A DNA stretch of 43,751 nt, taken from NCBI GenBank assembly GCA_018715925.1, contig DVKQ01000030.1, forward strand, positions 1 through 43,751, read 5' to 3'. The stretch comes from Candidatus Onthousia faecipullorum (GTDB lineage Bacteria; Bacillota_I; Bacilli_A; RF39; UBA660). A program made the translations under genes and the position numbers. The notes beneath the pieces are model-generated. The model was not told where the DNA came from, searched no databases, and saw nothing but the letters and a program-made list of their open reading frames with translations. Position 1 is the stretch's first letter; every line of letters begins with the position of its first letter. Positions 1 through 34,070 of the stretch are shown one piece after another.

Positions 1-341
1 AAATTTTCTATTATTTCCATTTCAAAATATCTCAAAGAAAGAATTTGTCCTAAACTATATTTTCCAGCAATTTTTCTATTTGGAATAGGTAAATTTTCAT
101 CTCTATATTTTTTTAGCCATTCTCTTTGAAATAATAAGGAATCATGTTCAGTTACTTTCTTGCTTTTAGGCTCTAAATCTTCTTCTAAATATTTTTCTTC
201 TATTATTTCACCGATACTTCTATCGTCTTCTTTTTTAGATATTAAAACAAAACTATTGCCTTCTTCTATTGCTTTGTTTATCCATAATTGATTAAATAAA
301 ATTGAATTTTTCTTAGTAATTTTTTCGTTCATTTCTATCAT
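1..341 (-). CDS. hypothetical protein, partial (runs off the window)
   Basis: Manual translation: ATG at 341, just after the mnmE stop, stays open to position 1 (MIEMNEKITKKNSILFNQLWINKAIEEG...). It does not resemble the MnmG N-terminus. Confidence 0.7.
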   Translation of the reverse strand, partial: MIEMNEKITKKNSILFNQLWINKAIEEGNSFVLISKKEDDRSIGEIIEEKYLEEDLEPKSKKVTEHDSLLFQREWLKKYRDENLPIPNRKIAGKYSLGQILSLRYFEMEIIEN

Positions 342-4888: not shown

Positions 4889-5063
4889 TTTTCCACTATT
4901 TCCACATGGTGTGGAAAAGAAATATTAACTTGTGAATTTAAAATTTGTGGAAAATGTGGAAAACTCTATTTTTTGTTGATATTTGTCGATTTGAACTGTG
5001 GAGAAATTTGTCGAAAAATTGTGGAAAACTAAAAATTTGAAAATTCCTATTCCTTTTTCCACA
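4889..5063. promoter_or_regulatory. oriC upstream DnaA-box cluster
   Basis: TGTGGAAAA at 4910, 4946, 4955 and 5020; TTTTCCACA at 5055; near-matches at 4889, 4898, 4997 and 5009; gene orientation switches here. Confidence 0.92.
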
Positions 5064-5115
5064 AATTTAGAGTATTATAATGGTAATTTAGGAAATTCAG
5101 GTGGGAGGTGATAGG

Positions 5116-6489
5116 GTGAATGTCGAAATTCTATGGCAAAATGTTCTGAAAGAGATAAAAGATGAACTTTCATCCTTAGCTTTCGACACTTGGTTTAGTG
5201 ATGTTAAACTTATTAGTTTAGATAATGGGGTCGCGACTATTGAAGTTCCTATGTCTATTCATAAAAAGCATTTGTCTGATAACTATTTTGAACTTATAAA
5301 AATGTCTTTAAATAAAGTTACGGGAACTAATTTTGAGTTAGAGTTTTTACTGCCAGATGAGATAGATAATAAAAAGATAGAAAAAGAGAAGGAAGAAGAA
5401 AAGGTAAGAGAGGAGGGAGTTCCCAAATCTTTTAAAAACCAATCTAATTTAAATCCTAAATATAATTTTGATAACTTTATAGTAGGTAATAGTAATAAGT
5501 TTGCACAAGCAGCGGCTTTATCTGTTGCTGAAAATCCTGGTAAAATGTATAACCCCTTGTTTATATATGGAAATAGTGGATTAGGTAAGACACATTTAAT
5601 GCATGCAATAGGAAATTATATTGTGGAAAATTCTAATAGAAGAGTTCTTTATGTTACAAGTGATCAGTTTAGAGATGATTTTGTTGGTATTAATAAAAAA
5701 GACGAGAAGGGGACTAACTTCAGTTATATAGACTTCTTTAAAAATAAATATAGAAATATAGATGTCTTAATAATTGATGATATTCAATTTCTTGGAGGAG
5801 CGACACAAACTCAACAGGAGTTTTTCCACACCTTTACTAATCTTTATAATGACTCAAAACAGATAATTATATCTTCAGATAGGTCTCCTAATGACTTAAA
5901 ACTCTTAGAAGAGCGACTTAGAACAAGGTTTTGTTGGGGCCTTACTGTTAATATTTATCCACCTGATTTTGAACTTAGGAAAGAAATTCTTCGTAAGAAA
6001 ATAATAGCAGGTAACTTTGAAGCAGAGATTCCAGAAGATGTTATTGAATACATTGCTTCTAATATGGGAAGTGATGTAAGACAGTTAGAAGGCTCTATCA
6101 CTAGACTTGTTGCTTATTCAACTATTATGGGAGGGGCGAGTATTGATATAAATCTTGCTATTGAAGCTTTGAAAGACTTTATTAGTAAAGGACTTAGCGA
6201 AAAGAATGATATTACTAGGATTCAAAAGATAGTGGCAGAGTATTTTCAGATATCTGTTGAAGATATAAGAAGTAAGAAAAGAAGTAGTAATATTGCTTTC
6301 CCAAGGCAGATTGCAATGTATTTGTGTAGAAAACTTACTAGTGAATCTTTTCCTAAGATAGGGACAGAGTTTGGAGGAAAGGATCACTCTACAGTTATGC
6401 ACTCCGTTGAGAAAATAGAACAAGAGATTAAAAATAATAGTGATTTAGCAGGGATTATTAAAAAATTAGAAGATGATTTGAAACCATGA
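5116..6489 (+). CDS. dnaA: chromosomal replication initiator DnaA
   Basis: YNPLFIYGNSGLGKTHL, IDDIQF, GGKDHSTVMH; GTG start at 5116 after GGAGGTG. Confidence 0.99.
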   Translation: MNVEILWQNVLKEIKDELSSLAFDTWFSDVKLISLDNGVATIEVPMSIHKKHLSDNYFELIKMSLNKVTGTNFELEFLLPDEIDNKKIEKEKEEEKVREEGVPKSFKNQSNLNPKYNFDNFIVGNSNKFAQAAALSVAENPGKMYNPLFIYGNSGLGKTHLMHAIGNYIVENSNRRVLYVTSDQFRDDFVGINKKDEKGTNFSYIDFFKNKYRNIDVLIIDDIQFLGGATQTQQEFFHTFTNLYNDSKQIIISSDRSPNDLKLLEERLRTRFCWGLTVNIYPPDFELRKEILRKKIIAGNFEAEIPEDVIEYIASNMGSDVRQLEGSITRLVAYSTIMGGASIDINLAIEALKDFISKGLSEKNDITRIQKIVAEYFQISVEDIRSKKRSSNIAFPRQIAMYLCRKLTSESFPKIGTEFGGKDHSTVMHSVEKIEQEIKNNSDLAGIIKKLEDDLKP

Positions 6490-6491
6490 GT

Positions 6492-6615
6492 TGTTGAAAA
6501 GTTTTTGTTTTAAACTTTTTATCCACAAGCATTGTTTTAAAAATTTATGGTATAATATATAGGAAAATTGTAGTTTTCCACATTTTCCACTCTATAAATA
6601 AAAATATATATTAAG
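6492..6615. promoter_or_regulatory. oriC downstream part (dnaA-dnaN): DnaA boxes and an AT-rich unwinding element
   Basis: TTATCCACA at 6519; tandem TTTTCCACA/TTTTCCACT at 6574-6591 followed by an almost pure A/T tract, as in the Bacillus incC arrangement. Confidence 0.85.
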
Positions 6616-11514: not shown

Positions 11515-13959
11515 ATGGATAGATTAGAACAAAATAATATAGTAAAGGAAGTAAAAGATTCTTTTCTTGATTACTCAATGAGTGTTATTACTTCAAGAGC
11601 GATACCTGATTTAAGAGATGGTTTAAAACCTGTTCATCGTCGTATTTTATATTCAATGTTTGAGTCTGGTTATACTCCTGATAAACCTCATAAGAAGTGT
11701 GCTAAAACAGTTGGAGAGGTTATGGGTAATTATCATCCACATGGTGATAGTTCAATTTATGAAGCGATGGTTAGAATGGCTCAAGATTTCTCTTATCGGT
11801 ATATGTTAATTGATGGCCACGGCAACTTTGGTAATATTGAAGGATATGGGGCTGCAGCGATGCGTTATACTGAGGCTAGACTTTCAAAGATTTCTCTTGA
11901 ACTCTTAAGAAATATTAATAAAAATACAGTTGACTTTATGTCTAATTTTGATGAATCTTCTAAAGAACCTGTAGTTTTACCATCAAGATTTCCTAATATT
12001 TTAGTTAATGGTACTACTGGTATCGCAGTAGGTATGGCAACCAATATACCTCCTCATAACTTAAAAGAGGTTATAGATGGTTGTGTTGCATACATAGATA
12101 ATCCTGATATTGATGTTGATGGCCTAATGCAATATATTAAAGGACCTGATTTTCCAACAGGTGCGATAATTCTTGGAAATAGCGGTATTAAAAAGGCTTA
12201 TGAGACAGGTAGAGGAACTATTACTATTAGAAGTAAGGCTCAGATAGAAGAAAAAAATGGTAGACAATATATTATTATTGATGAAGTTCCTTATGGTGTT
12301 AATACATCGGAATTAAAAAATAAGGTTGCAGAACTTGTTCATAATAAGACAATTGAAGGTATATCTGATTATCATTCTGATTTAAAAGATGGTATTAAGA
12401 TAACTATTACACTAAAGAAAGATGCCAATGCTCAAGTTGTTTTAAATAAACTATATAAGCATACACAGTTTCAAACAAGTTATGGAATAATTTTCTTAAT
12501 GTTAGACCAGGGTGTACCTAAAACATTGGGATTAAAAGATATAATTGCAAAATATATTGATTTCCAAAGGGAAGTTATTATTAGAAGAACTAAATTTGAT
12601 CTAGATAATGCAGAAAAACGTGTTCATATATTAGAAGGTTTAAAAATAGCATTAGATCATATTGATGAAGTAATTAAGTTAATTAGAGGATCTAAGTCTG
12701 ACGATGAGGCAAGAAATGGTTTAATGAATAAATTTGGCTTAAGTGAAATTCAAGCGAATGCTATTTTAGAGATGAGACTTAGAAGATTAACTGGATTAGA
12801 AAGAGAGAAAATAGAAAACGAACTTAAGGATTTACTTGAGTTAATTGCAAATTTGAAAGATATTTTAAGTAGTGATGCTAAGATTCTTAATGTTATTAAA
12901 ACAGAACTTTTAGAAATTAAAGATAAATATGGTGATGATAGAAGAACTAATATTGATATGACAGCGATTGAATATATTGAGGATGAATCTTTAATTCCTG
13001 TTGAGGATGTAATTGTAACTTTAACAAATAAAGGTTATATTAAAAGATTGAGAGCGGATACTTATAAGAGTCAAAATCGTGGCGGTGTTGGAATAAAAGG
13101 TATGGCCACAAATGAAGAAGACTTTGTTAAACATTTAATTTCAATGAAAACACACGATTATATCTTATTCTTCTCTAATAAAGGTAGAGTATATAGGCTT
13201 AAAGGATATGAGATTCCAGAGTTTAGTCGTCAGTCTAAAGGGTTACCTGTGGTTAATTTGTTATCATTAGAAAACAGTGAAAATATTAGTTCGATAGTAT
13301 GCTTGGACCCTTCTGTGGAAAACTATAAATATTTACTTTTTGTTACCAGAAATGGTCTTGTAAAACGTACTGAAATAAGTGAATTTGACAATATTAGAAA
13401 GAGTGGAAAGATTGCCATTGTTCTTAAAGATAACGATGAGTTAATAGCTGTGGATAAAACTACAGGAGAAAATGAAGTCATAATTGGTGCAAGTAATGGA
13501 AGAATGGTAAGATTTGTGGAAAATGAAATACGTTCTATGGGGCGTGGTACTTCTGGAGTTAAAGGAATTGAACTTGATGGAAGTGTTGTTGTAGGTGCCA
13601 ATGTTGTTGCTGATAATCAAGAAGTTTTAATTGTTACTGAGAATGGGTATGGTAAGAAAACAAGTATTAATGAATATCGATTAACTCATAGAGGCAGTAA
13701 AGGTGTTAAGGCTTTAAATATGACAGATAAAAATGGTTCTATGATATCTCTTAATTGTGTTGGTACTGATGAAGGTGATAAGAAAGATGTGATGATTATT
13801 ACAGATAGTGGTGTTGTTATGCGAATGCCAATGGAACAGATATCTACTTTGAAGAGAGCAACACAAGGAGTTAGATTGATTCATTTAAAAGATGATCAAA
13901 AGGTAGCAACAGTTACAGTTGTGGATAAAGATGAAGAAGAAATTATTACTGAAGAATAA
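11515..13959 (+). CDS. gyrA: DNA gyrase subunit A
   Basis: YHPHGD, AAMRYTE and GyrA box QNRGGVG. Confidence 0.99.
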
Positions 13960-13973: not shown

Positions 13974-13996
13974 AATTATATTGTAATAGTACTTAA

Positions 13997-14390
13997 TGTT
14001 TCACGTGAAACATATGAAGAAAGTATTCAATTTTATATAGAGAAGTACTGAAATTATTTCCCGGGAAATAATTTGTAAAGAAATATTATCTATTTAACCT
14101 TATATATTGTAATAGTACTTAATGTTTCACGTGAAACATATAGAGAAAGTATTTGATTTTATATAAAGAAGTACTGAAATTATTTCCCGGGAAATAATTT
14201 GTAAAGAAATAGTATTAATTTGAATATATATATTTTAACATTATCTAATGTTTCACGTGAAACATATGAAGAAAGTATTTGATTATATATAGAGAAATAC
14301 GAAAATTATTTCCCGGGAAATAATTTGTAAAGAAATATTATCTATTTAACCTTATATATTGTAATAGTACTTAATGTTTCACGTGAAACA
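13997..14390. promoter_or_regulatory. four parS sites (ParB/Spo0J binding)
   Basis: Perfect TGTTTCACGTGAAACA at 13997-14012, 14123-14138, 14249-14264 and 14375-14390. Confidence 0.95.
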
Positions 14391-14448
14391 TATGAAGAAA
14401 GTATTTGATTTTATATAAAGAAGTACTGAAATTATTTCCCGGGAAATA
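14055..14448. promoter_or_regulatory. four Noc-binding sites (NBS)
   Basis: Perfect TATTTCCCGGGAAATA at 14055-14070, 14181-14196, 14307-14322 and 14433-14448, each inside the 24-bp palindrome AAATTATTTCCCGGGAAATAATTT; matches the B. subtilis NBS consensus. Confidence 0.88.
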
Positions 14449-14487
14449 ATTTGTAAAGAAATAGTTTGTTAAATGTAAATAAAAATC

Positions 14488-14516
14488 TTGAATTTACCTT
14501 CTTTTTTTTGTATACT
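14488..14516 (+). promoter_or_regulatory. sigma-A promoter of the SRP RNA
   Basis: TTGAAT-17 bp-TATACT. Confidence 0.8.
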
Positions 14517-14521
14517 GTTAT

Positions 14522-14594
14522 CGTGCAATAAATTAGTTTGGAATCAGGTCAGGATGGAAACATAGCAGCCTTAACAAATCTAATTTATGTGCAC
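14522..14594 (+). ncRNA. ffs: small bacterial SRP (4.5S-type) RNA
   Basis: Single hairpin GTGCA/ATAAATTAG...CTAATTTAT/TGCAC enclosing the helix-8 motif TCAGG-ATG-GAAA-CAT-AGCAG; T run after it; next to tadA/dnaX like B. subtilis scr. Confidence 0.93.
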
Positions 14595-14621
14595 TTTTTT
14601 TATACAATAATGGAGGTTTCT

Positions 14622-15080
14622 ATGAATGATTATAAATATATGTTATTGGCTTTAGAACAAGCAAAAAAAGCTTATGATGAAGGTGAAGTTCCAGTTGGTG
14701 CTGTAATAGTGAAAGATGATAATGTAATTGCTAAGACACATAATACTAAGGAAAAAAATAAATGTTCGTTAGAACATGCTGAACTTTCTGCTATTAAGTT
14801 AGCTTGTGGAAAACTAAATAATTGGAGACTGATTGGAACTACTATCTATGTTACTCTTGAGCCTTGTCCAATGTGTGCCAGTGCTATTAAACAAAGTAGA
14901 ATAAATAGAGTTGTTTATTTGCTAGACAATAATGATATTAATAATTCAAAAATTGTTAATGAAATTTTCAGTTTACATGATGCAAATGCATCTGTGGAAA
15001 AAATGAAACTTGATATTTCTAAATTTAGTGAAAAAGATATTGATATTATTAGTGATTTTTTTAGAAAAAAAAGATATTAA
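14622..15080 (+). CDS. tadA: tRNA adenosine(34) deaminase
   Basis: GEVPVGAV, HAE, TLEPCPMC; start at 14622 after GGAGG. Confidence 0.93.
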   Translation: MNDYKYMLLALEQAKKAYDEGEVPVGAVIVKDDNVIAKTHNTKEKNKCSLEHAELSAIKLACGKLNNWRLIGTTIYVTLEPCPMCASAIKQSRINRVVYLLDNNDINNSKIVNEIFSLHDANASVEKMKLDISKFSEKDIDIISDFFRKKRY

Positions 15081-15148
15081 ACATATGTTTTATATGTTCT
15101 TTTTTTCTTTTGTTTGTTATACTATTTGTGTTTAGTGAGGTGAGGTAT

Positions 15149-16837
15149 ATGTATCAAGCTTTGTATCGTAAATATAGGCCTACTGTTTTTGATGATGTAG
15201 TAGGACAAAATATTGTAGTTAATACTTTGAAAAATGCTATTAATTATAACCATATTAATCATGCTTATTTATTTTCTGGTCCTAGAGGAACAGGTAAAAC
15301 TACTATTGCTAAAATTTTTGCACGATCAGTTAATTGTTTAGAACCTGTTAATGGTGTAGCCTGTGGAAAATGTAAAAACTGTTTATATTCATTTTCAAAA
15401 GAATGTATGGATATTATTGAAATAGATGCTGCTTCTAATAATGGTGTAGATGAAATAAGGGAACTTCGTAGTAAAGTTGGTATTTTACCAAGTGAGCTTA
15501 AATATAAAGTTTATATTATAGATGAAGTACATATGTTATCTATTGGTGCTTTTAATGCTTTATTAAAAACTATTGAGGAACCACCAGAACATGTAATCTT
15601 TATTTTGGCAACTACAGATCCAGAGAAAATACCTGCTACTATTATATCTAGGTGTCAGTGGTATTCTTTTAAGAAGATTAGTAATGATGATATTGTTAAA
15701 AGACTTATAGAAATAGTTAATGATGAGAATATTAAAGTTGATGAGAAGGTTCTTGAAAAAATCGCACAAGCTTCTGATGGTGGACTTCGTGATGCGATTG
15801 GACTTCTTGATAAATTAAGAGCTTACTGTACTGATGAAATTACTTTGGATGACTTTTATGAGATAAATGGAGAAGTTAATGAAGAAGAGTTAAAGAAACT
15901 AGAAAAATTAATATTTTCTTTTGAGGTAAGTGAAGTTCTTTCCTTTGTTGAAAAACATTATAGGGATGGGAAAAATTTAGTTCAAGTTGTTAAACAATTA
16001 ATGTTACTTATTAAAGATGAGTTATTTAATCATTATATAAATAATGACGAGCTTATTTTCGAAGAGTCTGAACTTGTTAATTTCTTAAATCTTTTGAATG
16101 AACATTTGGTTGAGTTGAAGAAAGCAGATGATGTTAAGTTATCTATTGAAATCTTTTTGTTACATTATATGAATGAACATAAAAATCCTAAAACTGTACC
16201 AAATGAAGATGCTTATTCTCAAACTAAAACAACTGAGGAAGTATATATAAGACCTAAGAGGGGAGAAAAAACTATTTCCACAGAGACAGTGGATAAACAA
16301 AATAAGATAAAAAGTTTATCAACAGAAGTTGTGCAAAAAAATAATGAACAAATAAAAAAATATGAAGAGTTAATGTTAATAAGAAGTAAAAATACAATGA
16401 TAGAAGCAGTGAAAGATGAATTAAATAAAGAAACAAATAATTTTGATAAACTTAATGATTATACTTTTGATTCTAATAATGGATATCTTGCTTGTGAACT
16501 TTTAGATGGTAAGGTAAGGGCATCTAGTCTTAAAAATATTATTATTAGTTATGATTATGAAGGAATGGTAGATAAGCTTAGTAATCATTTTAATAAGTTA
16601 AATGACTTTTATAATGAAAAAACAGGATCATCTAAGAGAATTGCTTTTATTACTACTACAAAATGGAATGAGTTGAAACAAGAATACATTAATCTACATA
16701 AGCAAGGAAAACAATTTGAATATCAAGAAGAACCTATATTGAATAGTTTGGAAGAAGATGTTAAAATAAATAATGAATCTGATGATTTAATAAATCAAAC
16801 TATTGAGATGTTTGGAGATTTAGTAGAAGTTGAATAG
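15149..16837 (+). CDS. dnaX: DNA polymerase III gamma/tau
   Basis: LYRKYRP, GPRGTGKT, DAASNNGVD, IIDEVHML, SRC. Confidence 0.98.
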   Translation: MYQALYRKYRPTVFDDVVGQNIVVNTLKNAINYNHINHAYLFSGPRGTGKTTIAKIFARSVNCLEPVNGVACGKCKNCLYSFSKECMDIIEIDAASNNGVDEIRELRSKVGILPSELKYKVYIIDEVHMLSIGAFNALLKTIEEPPEHVIFILATTDPEKIPATIISRCQWYSFKKISNDDIVKRLIEIVNDENIKVDEKVLEKIAQASDGGLRDAIGLLDKLRAYCTDEITLDDFYEINGEVNEEELKKLEKLIFSFEVSEVLSFVEKHYRDGKNLVQVVKQLMLLIKDELFNHYINNDELIFEESELVNFLNLLNEHLVELKKADDVKLSIEIFLLHYMNEHKNPKTVPNEDAYSQTKTTEEVYIRPKRGEKTISTETVDKQNKIKSLSTEVVQKNNEQIKKYEELMLIRSKNTMIEAVKDELNKETNNFDKLNDYTFDSNNGYLACELLDGKVRASSLKNIIISYDYEGMVDKLSNHFNKLNDFYNEKTGSSKRIAFITTTKWNELKQEYINLHKQGKQFEYQEEPILNSLEEDVKINNESDDLINQTIEMFGDLVEVE

Positions 16838-25623: not shown

Positions 25624-26262
25624 ATGATGGTAGTGGTTAAAGAGGATATTTTAAAACAACATAAACAAATATTAATGACAGCAGGGGTTGAACTTGCTAC
25701 TAATAATACTAATTCTTTAATAGAAGATGATATTATTAATGGAGTTATAGAAGTACCACTTGAAGCGATGGATACAGTTAAACAAAGAGTTCTTAATATT
25801 GCTAAACATAACAATTTAATTTTAAATAGTGATAAATTTAATGAAGTTTTAATTGGTTATAAAGATGAATTAAAGAAGCAATTTAGAAATATTTTTAAGA
25901 AAAGAATAAAATTAATAGAAGATAATTATTCTAAGTTTGATGATGATAAACCAATGGACTTAGTTAAAAATTTAAAGAAAGAGTTAGTTAAATTTAATAA
26001 AGAAGTGAAAAAAGAAGAGAAACAAGTTCTTACTAGTCTTGTTAAAGAGAAACTTGTAAGTAATTTAGATTTAATAGTTAAAGATGATAATACTACTTTT
26101 AAGAAAGATGCTACTAAGTTTTTACAAACAACCTATGTTAAACAAATATTAGAGACTGTTGATATGAAAATATTGGTTAAAGATACGATACTTCTTAATA
26201 GTCTTAAAGAACAGATAGAGAGGTTTGTTTTTACTAAAGAAAATTCTCATTTATTTGATTAG
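25624..26262 (+). CDS. hypothetical protein (lysine-rich, likely helical)
   Basis: Long ORF with a GGAGG RBS; no family recognised. Confidence 0.8.
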   Translation: MMVVVKEDILKQHKQILMTAGVELATNNTNSLIEDDIINGVIEVPLEAMDTVKQRVLNIAKHNNLILNSDKFNEVLIGYKDELKKQFRNIFKKRIKLIEDNYSKFDDDKPMDLVKNLKKELVKFNKEVKKEEKQVLTSLVKEKLVSNLDLIVKDDNTTFKKDATKFLQTTYVKQILETVDMKILVKDTILLNSLKEQIERFVFTKENSHLFD

Positions 26263-26979: not shown

Positions 26980-27213
26980 TTAAAAGTTGTGATGAAGAGT
27001 CTTATAAATTCTAGTTATAGAGAGTTCTTGGATGGTGGAAAAGAAACGAATGATTATATAAGATATGGCTTCTGAACTTTCATATTGATATGTAAGTATG
27101 AACGTGCTAAGTGTTAATTAGAATAAGTGTACAAGATTTATTGTGAAGAAAGGTGGTACCACGGGTTAGCTCGTCCTTTCGTTATAATAAATCTTTTTAT
27201 TTTTGAGGAGGAG
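26980..27213 (+). promoter_or_regulatory. T-box riboswitch (Met specifier)
   Basis: TGATGAAG/CTTCTGAA K-turn, AGAGA, GGTGGAA, ATG specifier at 27065-27067, T-box AAGGTGGTACCACG...CGTCCTT. Confidence 0.93.
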
Positions 27214-33362: not shown

Positions 33363-34070
33363 ATGAAAAGAAATTATAAAGAGTGGTTATTGACAGCAAG
33401 AAAAGTATTTCATTTTATTGCAACAGTTTTAATGTATTCTATATGTTTAATAATGGTTATTGTATTCTTAGTTTTTGTTATTAACTTTATAGATAAACAG
33501 TATAATTTAAAATCTGGACAAAATAAAAAGAATCTTTTCTCAGCTTATACTATAGTTAGTCCTTCGATGGTTCCTGCTATAAATGTTTTAGATGTTGTAG
33601 TTACTGTTAGAGTTGATGGTCCTGAGGATTTAGAAAAAGGTGATATTATAACATTTGATTCTACTGATTATAGATATTCTGGAGTAACTGTTACACACAG
33701 AATTTTGGATATAGATAAGACTAGTAGTGGAGAGTATTTATATACTACAAAAGGAGATAATAATAATACTCAAGATTCATCGAGAATTAATTTTGATGCT
33801 ATATATGGTAAAGTATTATTTGTAATTCCAAAGATAGGTTATATTCAATATTATCTTAGTTCTATTCTAGGTTGGGTTGCTATTATTATAGTTCCTGCAG
33901 TTATGATTATAGGTTATGATATATATAAATTAATTAAGACAATTAGATCTTCTGATAAGGATTCTTCTGATAAAAAGAAAAAAATAGATAATAAGAAAAA
34001 AGATAAGGATAAGGATAATAATAAAAATAAAAACAAATTATTAAAAAAAGAAGGAAGGTTTAAGAAATGA
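33363..34070 (+). CDS. sipW: ER-type signal peptidase I (SipW, S26B)
   Basis: VSPSMVP, GDII, VTHRI, TKGDNN (Ser/His type); N- and C-terminal transmembrane segments. Confidence 0.92.
   Translation: MKRNYKEWLLTARKVFHFIATVLMYSICLIMVIVFLVFVINFIDKQYNLKSGQNKKNLFSAYTIVSPSMVPAINVLDVVVTVRVDGPEDLEKGDIITFDSTDYRYSGVTVTHRILDIDKTSSGEYLYTTKGDNNNTQDSSRINFDAIYGKVLFVIPKIGYIQYYLSSILGWVAIIIVPAVMIIGYDIYKLIKTIRSSDKDSSDKKKKIDNKKKDKDKDNNKNKNKLLKKEGRFKK

Follow-up and report, generated by a model that had tools for sequence, protein, structure and literature searches.

Alternating parS and Noc-binding sites beside the replication origin of Candidatus Onthousia faecipullorum: a candidate composite centromere for two ParB-family clamps

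Why should a chromosome carry four binding sites for one ParB-family protein and four for another, laid out in strict turn within half a kilobase of DNA next to its origin of replication? This question is raised by contig DVKQ01000030.1 of Candidatus Onthousia faecipullorum (assembly GCA_018715925.1), a stretch of 43,751 nucleotides which we analysed whole and call the window. In the spacer between gyrA and the small signal recognition particle (SRP) RNA gene, consensus parS sites, as used by Spo0J/ParB, alternate with consensus Noc-binding sites (NBSs). Noc is the textbook case of a ParB duplicate that acquired a new DNA specificity and a new job and, to our knowledge, all that is known of it comes from Bacillus subtilis, Staphylococcus aureus and Geobacillus. 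We consider it fairly likely that the array is a composite chromosomal centromere, which interleaves sites for two cytidine triphosphate (CTP) dependent clamps and at which a Noc-type protein acts as an origin-specific adaptor.

An alternating array of parS and NBS

Tandem Repeats Finder places the repeat at 13977-14463, with a period of 126 bp, 3.9 copies, 88% matches and 0% indels, and each 126-bp unit holds one parS and one NBS. Both the parS 16-mer TGTTTCACGTGAAACA and the NBS 16-mer TATTTCCCGGGAAATA are present in four copies with 0 mismatches, and a scan of the window at ≤2 mismatches found no fifth copy of either. The numbers expected in the window by chance were 0.00 for parS (100 shuffles) and 0.02 for NBS, four NBSs being reached in 0 of 100 shuffles. 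The two site types alternate strictly, with start-to-start gaps of 58 and 68 bp that add up to the 126-bp period; the layout read by the initial annotation was therefore reproduced by motif scans and Tandem Repeats Finder alike. In all four units both 16-mers sit inside longer perfect palindromes, of 18 bp for parS and 24 bp for NBS. The assignment of the palindromes also stood, as the cores of the parS and NBS oligonucleotides described by Jalal et al. 2021 (PMC8429893) are exactly these two 16-mers; the two site types differ at two positions per half-site in the account of Jalal et al. 2020 (PMC7383237). The sites, none of which is assigned a strand, are the following:

13997-14012, parS 1, perfect TGTTTCACGTGAAACA, inside the 18-bp palindrome 13996-14013
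14055-14070, NBS 1, perfect TATTTCCCGGGAAATA, inside the 24-bp palindrome 14051-14074
14123-14138, parS 2, perfect match
14181-14196, NBS 2, perfect match
14249-14264, parS 3, perfect match, with a left-hand spacer more diverged than in the other three units
14307-14322, NBS 3, perfect match
14375-14390, parS 4, perfect match
14433-14448, NBS 4, perfect match

The array also accounts for every such site in the genome, a point that had been missed when genome-wide mapping was first proposed. No parS or NBS was found outside it at ≤2 mismatches in the whole assembly (1,412,486 bp in 101 contigs, 94.28% complete); TCCCGGGA and TTCACGTGAA each occur four times, all four within the array, and the hexamer CCCGGG occurs just eight times in the entire assembly. 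Because the NBSs of the array are the only ones in the genome, the scattered-site logic of nucleoid occlusion in B. subtilis is inapplicable here. The sites of the array are real, unique in the genome and under selection.

The stretch is contained in public sequencing runs that are mostly chicken gut metagenomes (19 rows from 11 studies, one of them perhaps the source study). Short-read contigs of four of these runs (four studies; Logan) end within the array and none spans the whole repeat, and depth sums over such contigs do not equal copy numbers. Some of them cross parS-to-NBS and NBS-to-parS junctions with 0 differences.

In one unit (13977-14103) the parS and NBS half-units resemble diverged copies of an ancestor of ~60 bp, with a common layout of TATA, AGTACT, palindrome and AAGAAA.TAT. 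When the 20-nt flanks of parS were aligned with those of NBS, only 16 of 2000 shuffles matched or beat the alignment; the sequence being AT-rich, we take the homology of the half-units as suggestive.

A Spo0J protein and a Noc-type paralogue that starts late

The assembly holds exactly two ParB_N genes, both on contig C78. There, an open reading frame (ORF) open at its 5' end (putative mnmG) is followed by rsmG, the gene of the Noc-type protein P0001 (480 aa), a gene for a ParA-type ATPase (262 aa), that of the Spo0J protein P0002 (298 aa) and a membrane-protein ORF. The start of C78 and the left end of the window (contig C3 of our set) share a 9-bp overlap that continues an open frame, and C78 thus appears to adjoin the window on the left, the side on which parB and noc had been expected. 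Given this overlap, the noc-type gene probably starts ~2.6 kb left of window position 1, with oriC between it and the array and with ~16.6 kb from gene to array; in two closed relatives the corresponding distance is 17-19 kb.

P0002 finds its best match in B. subtilis Spo0J (6sdk, 214.9 bits) and has the parS-type specificity residues R173 and G201, an N-terminus KRRALGKGLEELF with an LGKGL-type ParA-interaction motif, a DNA-binding domain of the form GKSRSH...SMGHAR and a ParB_C match of 24.6 bits. The 262-aa protein encoded between the two parB genes belongs to the ParA/MinD superfamily, and no equivalog model passes its cut-off with it. SMC is encoded in the genome (947.5 bits). The genome thus has the components of a ParABS system, namely consensus parS near oriC, a parS-type ParB with its motifs, an adjacent ParA-type ATPase and SMC. 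As for division-site control, FtsZ and two DivIVA-domain proteins are encoded in the genome (G000), and MinD was not found in this 94%-complete assembly, where only the ParA-type partition ATPase matches the MinD model, at a score under the cut-off.

P0001 matches Noc (7nfu, 214.3 bits) better than Spo0J (166.5 bits), and has Q173, K179, A184 and R201 at the positions that govern NBS specificity. In Jalal et al. 2020 (PMC7383237), adenine 1 is read by Q173 and cytosine 6 by R201, and a single lysine in either position, 179 or 184, is described as sufficient; the residue set of P0001 should therefore be adequate for NBS binding. Full-length Noc matches from Staphylococcus-like and other members of the class have N instead of K at 184. 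The Pfam domains ParB_N (120.2 bits) and HTH_ParB (115.2 bits) are both recognised and the CTP-motif boxes GERR and ENLQR are intact. The match to the curated Noc model comes in two pieces because an inserted linker splits it: the C-terminal 61 residues alone score 21.4 bits against model positions 205-255, and the final 51 residues match the C-terminal end of the model with E = 1.4e-4.

A quick maximum-likelihood tree with 66 rows groups every one of the 54 Q-type proteins in a single clade, separate from Spo0J (Shimodaira-Hasegawa-like approximate likelihood ratio test 99), within which the proteins with a long linker make up a clade of 29 rows (support 100). The branching order among the Noc subclades is not resolved by this tree, which leaves loss versus gain of the membrane helix without polarity. 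The best 150 cluster representatives of P0001 at 50% identity, our sample of the subfamily, keep Q173 in 150 of 150 and K179 and R201 in 149 each, never have K184, and carry GERR in 150 of 150 and EN[LVI]QR in 148 of 150; their lengths run from 221 to 982 residues, with a median of 480. A homologue search returned only close relatives, 87-100% identical, and a 95%-identical protein is named in the database 'ParB/RepB/Spo0J family partition protein [Candidatus Onthousia excrementipullorum]'. P0001 is a member of the Noc clade on four counts: its phylogeny, its specificity residues, its C-terminal domain and its synteny. The helix-turn-helix residues of both proteins, which the initial annotation had proposed to inspect (R173 and G201 in Spo0J; Q173, K179 and R201 in the Noc-type protein), match the two palindromes, and for that reason a platform co-loading both proteins, as first suggested, would be the natural reading.

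P0001 nevertheless falls short of Noc in three features, as it has no membrane helix, its sites are not scattered and its score against the curated model is narrowly too low; we accordingly class it as a paralogue within the Noc clade whose way of working is probably a different one. Its ORF starts MDNKENEVVYL, residue 5 aligns with residue 25 of Geobacillus Noc (chain 7nfu_A), and there is no in-frame ATG, GTG or TTG upstream of this start before the preceding stop. As the chain begins ~20 residues later and a longer frame is impossible, P0001 is without the N-terminal extension of Noc. The same holds widely in the subfamily, with ≤11 residues ahead of the first strand in 145 of the 150 representatives, and members of the class with a Noc of canonical length start MFNIFSR, MNIFS or MGLFDFLG. 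The first 10 residues of Noc are its membrane determinant in the work of Jalal et al. 2021 (PMC8429893), where Noc without them fails to bind liposomes, and the helix was predicted in every Noc homologue examined by Adams et al. 2015. Membrane tethering of the origin through an N-terminal amphipathic helix, as proposed in the initial annotation, thus finds no place in P0001.

What P0001 has instead is a linker of ~215 residues between its DNA-binding and C-terminal domains, rich in N, E, P and S. The AlphaFold confidence (predicted local distance difference test, pLDDT) is >90 for residues 1-212 and 95 for 431-475, and 41-56 in between, except for a short predicted helix at 278-284. Two motifs recur in linkers of the subfamily: M1, of the type VDINKIKExxxDI, in 36 of 147 proteins (0.1 expected from shuffled linkers), and M2, of the type KF[IVL]PxF[DE], in 32 of 147 (0.25 expected). 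The M1 of P0001, DINAIKDNARDI at residues 277-288, coincides with the modelled helix. A predicted complex of two copies of the ParA-type protein, two ATP and P0001 215-430 scored 0.01 (mark 0.32), which is neutral on binding.

The linker of P0001 (C78, L001:1480-2922) also contains a degenerate M2 (PKFIDYDVP), an LLAG motif and an FKFF motif, and repeated [DN]SLF[GSA] motifs are seen in the linkers of relatives. Other families of the class (L165-L168 and L170; f5, f11, f23) have Noc-type proteins of 251-260 aa (Q, K, x, R) that open with the ParB N-terminal domain itself and lack a helix-like N-terminus, so helix-less Noc-type proteins are not limited to this order; family f24 (L169) has a 675-aa Noc-type protein with a MALFNRK-type N-terminus and a long insertion.

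Mixed clusters in relatives and the origin region

Exact parS-NBS pairs (14-mer cores, gaps of 30-60 nt) occur in 10 of 24 other genomes of the genus and in none of 16 genomes from other families of the class. The search for the pairing in relatives, suggested at the outset, was rewarded by a scan of species representatives, which returned exact pairs in at least 120 stretches, long-read circular genomes included; the counts for related loci rest on these. Nearly all are metagenome-assembled genomes titled uncultured Bacilli, Erysipelotrichaceae, Mycoplasma, Tenericutes, Mollicutes or Clostridium. Among the 120 loci listed, gyrA adjoins 95 and dnaX adjoins 93, and this neighbourhood is kept down to ~55-60% GyrA identity. 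The sites themselves are well preserved, with 0 mismatches in 312 of 479 parS-like and 326 of 389 NBS-like sites of the listed loci; the flanks are conserved as A-parS-T and AAAT-NBS-ATTT, and the spacers hold ~0.3 bits per position.

Their arrangement varies. Of the 120 loci listed, 30 have alternating runs of at least four sites, 16 of them of at least six, and the remaining loci are irregular mixed clusters. The modal periods of relatives are 75, 76, 83, 84, 109, 117, 125-127 and 187 bp, and the parS-NBS spacing between lineages runs from 18 to >100 bp (27-28 bp in some genera). The exact 126-bp phasing, offered as a property of note, is thus not conserved. Twelve helical turns of 10.5 bp make up 126 bp, and gaps of 58 and 68 bp would set the two site types on opposite faces of the helix; we set helical phasing aside as a functional feature because the modal periods of relatives range so widely (75 to 187 bp).

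Three chromosome-level genomes hold mixed clusters, which settles the doubt about an assembly artefact. One long-read circular genome (G041, OZ006970.1) has 6 parS and 6 NBSs in 700 bp and one further NBS 6.7 kb off, another (G042, OZ006981.1) has 10 parS and 13 NBSs in 1 kb, and a chromosome-level genome (G043, CP091739.1) has 3 parS and 1 NBS in 0.9 kb; beyond these, none of the three shows any parS or NBS at ≤1 mismatch. The ParB genes of G043 look truncated in the ORF parse and were left out. Both paralogues are encoded in four array-bearing genomes (G041, G042, G044 and G045) and in 7 of 7 sampled genomes of the family. The Spo0J proteins of the four have R at 173 in every case, and at 201 G in three and S in one.

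A wider sample of 401 genomes of the order, nearly all from one family, contains a perfect 14-bp NBS core in 323 genomes (1-10 per genome). When two tables of perfect tight pairs, for gaps of 26-56 nt and of 0-30 nt, were merged by hand, their union came to 88 of 401 genomes.

Four relatives (G217, G156, G091 and G357) were mapped more closely (L176+L177, L178+L179, L180+L181 and L182+L183, respectively). All their parS are confined to the gyrA-dnaX spacer; the nearest NBS lies 27-28 bp from parS in G217, G156 and G091, and ~400 bp from the cluster in G357. Their NBS zone spans ~21 kb and brackets oriC. Lone perfect NBSs recur across genera just after mnmE, near the start of dnaX and ~5 kb past recR.

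In several genera a DnaA box, TGTGGATAA or TGTGGAAAA, occupies the parS-NBS gap of 11-14 nt to give a three-site unit (for example G156:C5:33740-33781 and 33995-34036, and G217:C4:25037-25077 and 25648-25688; further examples are in G260:C32:179997-180855 and G274:C2:14877-16143). The variant TGTGGAAAA also dominates oriC of the window. Over all gaps, DnaA boxes at ≤1 mismatch were counted in 33 of 455 parS-NBS gaps, in 16 of 122 loci (shuffled mean 4.8, maximum 9).

Five complete genomes of the class, two of them with a full-length Noc bearing the membrane-targeting sequence, have 0-1 NBS and 0-3 parS each at ≤1 mismatch; because such a count cannot reveal a scattered distribution, the contrast with the scattered sites of canonical Noc rests on published work. 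Two complete or near-complete genomes with helix-bearing full-length Noc (G467 and G509) have no NBS or parS within 1 mismatch of the 16-mer consensus, and by that comparison the sites of this small-genome order are unusually close to consensus.

In the window, dnaA, dnaN, recF and gyrB lie upstream of the array, and its surroundings are made up as follows:

4910-5063, no strand, DnaA-box cluster upstream of dnaA, left part of oriC
5101-6489, dnaA, from a model search of the window proteins
6519-6582, no strand, DnaA boxes in the dnaA-dnaN spacer, right part of oriC
11515-13959, plus strand, gyrA (NCBIfam NF004043, 1158 bits), left boundary of the array spacer
14488-14516, plus strand, promoter-like site (TTGAAT, 17 nt, TATACT), by consensus match only, just 5' of the SRP RNA gene
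14519-14600, plus strand, small SRP RNA gene ffs (Rfam RF00169, 53.4 bits against a gathering score of 40), right boundary of the spacer
14622-15080, plus strand, TadA-like deaminase ORF (TadA model 106.5 bits, under the cut-off of 150)
15110-16837, after the TadA-like ORF, dnaX (486.9 bits)

The GC skew changes sign at ~4-5 kb of the window; from this switch and the DnaA-box clusters, the array is placed ~7.4-9 kb from oriC, which agrees with the first estimate of about 7.5 kb. No DnaA box was found inside the array at ≤1 mismatch, nor was a terminator-like site found. The TadA-like gene is likely to start with the ATG at 14622, after GGAGG; its longest ORF, from a TTG at 14538, overlaps the SRP RNA gene. 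A small minus-strand ORF at window 3-341, between mnmE and the presumed mnmG, leaves the left end of the window and seems to run on for 12 codons on C78 after the 9-bp overlap. A T-box leader at 26980-27181 on the plus strand (Rfam RF00230, 102.7 bits) is unrelated to the array.

A proposed composite centromere and its alternatives

In the scheme that we favour, Spo0J/ParB dimers would load at the four parS and dimers of the Noc-clade paralogue at the four NBSs. CTP binding would close both clamps round the DNA, both would slide outward, and ~10-20 kb around oriC would become coated by a mixed population of the two. These steps of loading, clamping and spreading are modelled on the known behaviour of ParB and Noc. 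The most likely role of the Noc-type protein, and the least secure step of the scheme, is that of an origin-specific adaptor whose linker motifs would recruit one or more putative partners to the partition complex. Since P0001 has no membrane-targeting helix and its sites lie only at the centromere, it cannot carry out nucleoid occlusion across the genome in the way of B. subtilis Noc. The strict alternation is probably incidental, the outcome of tandemly amplifying a unit in which both sites were already present, and selection probably keeps the two site types close together and in multiple copies.

Several observations weigh against a composite centromere of this kind. The mechanistic steps are all transferred from proteins of B. 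subtilis, G. thermoleovorans or Caulobacter. An alternating run of at least four sites is present in only 30 of the 120 loci listed, 78 of the 401 genomes of the order are without a perfect NBS core, and perfect tight pairs (55 of 401 genomes for gaps of 26-56 nt, 49 of 401 for gaps of 0-30 nt) are not universal. Lone NBSs lie up to ~10-13 kb either side of oriC in the four relatives mapped more closely, where the rule is 'origin zone' and not 'inside the parS cluster'. P0001 itself scores 293.7 bits over positions 1-195 of the Noc model TIGR04285 and does not reach the cut-off of 315, and a membrane-binding or FtsZ-inhibiting element may hide in its linker. Finally, the adjacency of C3 and C78 is drawn from a 9-bp overlap that continues an open frame, and four units is the number as assembled, in a repeat that no short-read contig spans.

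A bolder, order-wide form of the proposal is tentative and, on balance, doubtful. It holds that throughout this order of small-genome gut Bacilli Noc would be no nucleoid-occlusion factor but a second obligatory clamp of the centromere, perhaps close to the ancestral state, that the ParB gene and a repeat unit with parS would have been duplicated and have diverged in step to give a centromere of two proteins and two sites, and that the Bacillales would later have gained the helix and the dispersed sites, and with them nucleoid occlusion. The basis offered for co-duplication is the likeness of the half-unit flanks, together with sites that differ at two half-site positions. If this were true, the array would be a living intermediate of a textbook neofunctionalisation and the linker a new origin-recruitment module.

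We regard it as unlikely that the array serves an origin-restricted nucleoid occlusion or a membrane tether that works through another element, such as the helix at 278-284 or a partner such as DivIVA. Such a role, which comes near to the idea of the initial annotation, would have the Noc-type protein carry DNA to the membrane or block FtsZ around oriC alone. Membership of P0001 in the Noc clade speaks for such a role, as does a genome in which no MinD was found while FtsZ and two DivIVA-domain proteins are present, so that some other control of the division site would be needed; moreover, the highest hydrophobic moment of P0001 falls on the conserved linker motif at 277-288, the one modelled as a helix. 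That motif, however, is acidic and polar overall and occurs in just 36 of 147 linkers, the N-terminal membrane determinant of Noc is missing in P0001 as in 145 of 150 relatives, and sites within ~0.5 kb cannot protect a whole nucleoid.

No better chance is given to control of replication initiation, in which a Noc-type clamp beside oriC would regulate DnaA or origin firing and the parS/NBS cluster would belong to a region that controls the origin, with segregation not its sole purpose. Noc of S. aureus restrains initiation, and dnaA mutations suppress noc defects, as reported by Pang et al. 2017; in G217, G156 and G091 NBSs stand on both sides of oriC (after mnmE, in the gyrA-dnaX cluster, and near or beyond dnaX), and DnaA boxes fall in parS-NBS gaps more often than in shuffled sequence (33 of 455 against a mean of 4.8). 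Against this, such boxes are confined to a minority of lineages, and the array of the window is without one at ≤1 mismatch. Replication control would be compatible with a composite centromere if the linker recruits DnaA or a DnaA regulator.

DNA-bound proteins block sliding ParB clamps, and the two clamps could be mutual antagonists, each a roadblock or competitor to the other, which would limit the loading or sliding of ParB or the recruitment of SMC (or act the other way round) and so tune the size of the partition complex. With sites 58 and 68 bp apart here and 27-28 bp elsewhere, a bound dimer would obstruct the neighbouring clamp, and SMC is present. Yet a spacing that varies from 18 to >100 bp between lineages speaks against a precise steric device, the distinct specificity residues of the two proteins give no sign of competition, and CTP clamps occupy their nucleation site only transiently in the Noc model presented in Jalal et al. 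2021 (PMC8429893). We hold this to be quite improbable.

The initial annotation had also named a single ParB-family protein of dual specificity that reads both palindromes, an idea which draws on the small difference between them (two positions per half-site; Jalal et al. 2020, PMC7383237). It is ruled out as a candidate by the two dedicated paralogues in the genome and has very little left in its favour: they carry two distinct residue sets, Q173 is kept in 150 of 150 and R201 in 149 of 150 Noc-type representatives, Spo0J of four array-bearing genomes retains R173, and the mutational paths described in Jalal et al. 2020 do not use dual-specificity intermediates. Least credible of all, to a degree that we consider negligible, is an assembly artefact or a neutral or selfish tandem repeat without function: the assembly is in 101 contigs, short-read contigs break in the repeat and many related arrays stop at contig ends, but the same layout stands in the long-read circular OZ006970.1 and OZ006981.1 (6 and 10-13 units) and in contigs of four public runs, in keeping with the first judgement that an artefact was unlikely, and in the 120 loci listed the palindromes are perfect or near perfect amid unconserved spacers, with the gyrA-dnaX position retained to ~55-60% GyrA identity.

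A large, common and uncultured gut lineage thus keeps the DNA-reading residues of Noc together with the exact NBS, and confines the sites to the origin, where most are interspersed with parS. This opens the way to testing whether two CTP clamps can share one loading zone and with what effect on the partition complex, which task Noc-type proteins had before nucleoid occlusion arose or have in its absence, and how organisms that possess neither MinD nor a Noc able to bind the membrane couple segregation, replication and division. Being compact and natural, the array could also serve as a two-colour cassette for clamp loading, in vitro or in B. subtilis. In keeping with the first remark that no described interleaved array was known, neither interleaved parS/NBS arrays nor long-linker Noc proteins without the helix came up in the literature searched.

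Compared with the Noc-NBS systems of B. subtilis and S. aureus, the locus has an identical 16-bp NBS, a protein of the same clade with Q173, K179 and R201, the CTP motifs and a Noc-type C-terminal domain, and the same gene order of rsmG, noc, a parA-type gene and spo0J. It differs in that P0001 lacks the N-terminal helix and has a disordered linker of ~215 residues, and in that there are four sites, all in one 0.5-kb array beside parS, whereas the Noc sites reported by Pang et al. 2017 and Jalal et al. 2020 (PMC7383237) are widely spread except near the terminus, with 41 loci found by chromatin immunoprecipitation in S. aureus. Chromosomal ParABS systems with clustered parS share with it perfect parS within ~9 kb of oriC, a Spo0J with LGKGL, R173 and G201, a ParA-type protein and SMC; unlike in those systems, every parS here is paired with the site of a second ParB-family protein, and all lie in one intergenic tandem repeat. 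We know of no described chromosomal centromere that interleaves sites for two paralogous clamps. The RacA-ram system of sporulating B. subtilis offers a parallel, since there too a second site-specific protein, in that case not of the ParB family, sits on multiple origin-proximal sites beside Spo0J-parS, and links the origin to another cell structure. RacA is, however, no ParB-family CTP clamp, and its sites are spread over a large origin-proximal region and not interleaved with parS. The KorB-type and orphan ParB-CTPases, as presented in PMC12704722, come close in another respect, being ParB-fold clamps without a ParA-binding motif that were repurposed with their canonical domain layout; those proteins have sites and loci of their own, whereas the sites of the Noc-type protein described here are embedded in the centromere of its host.

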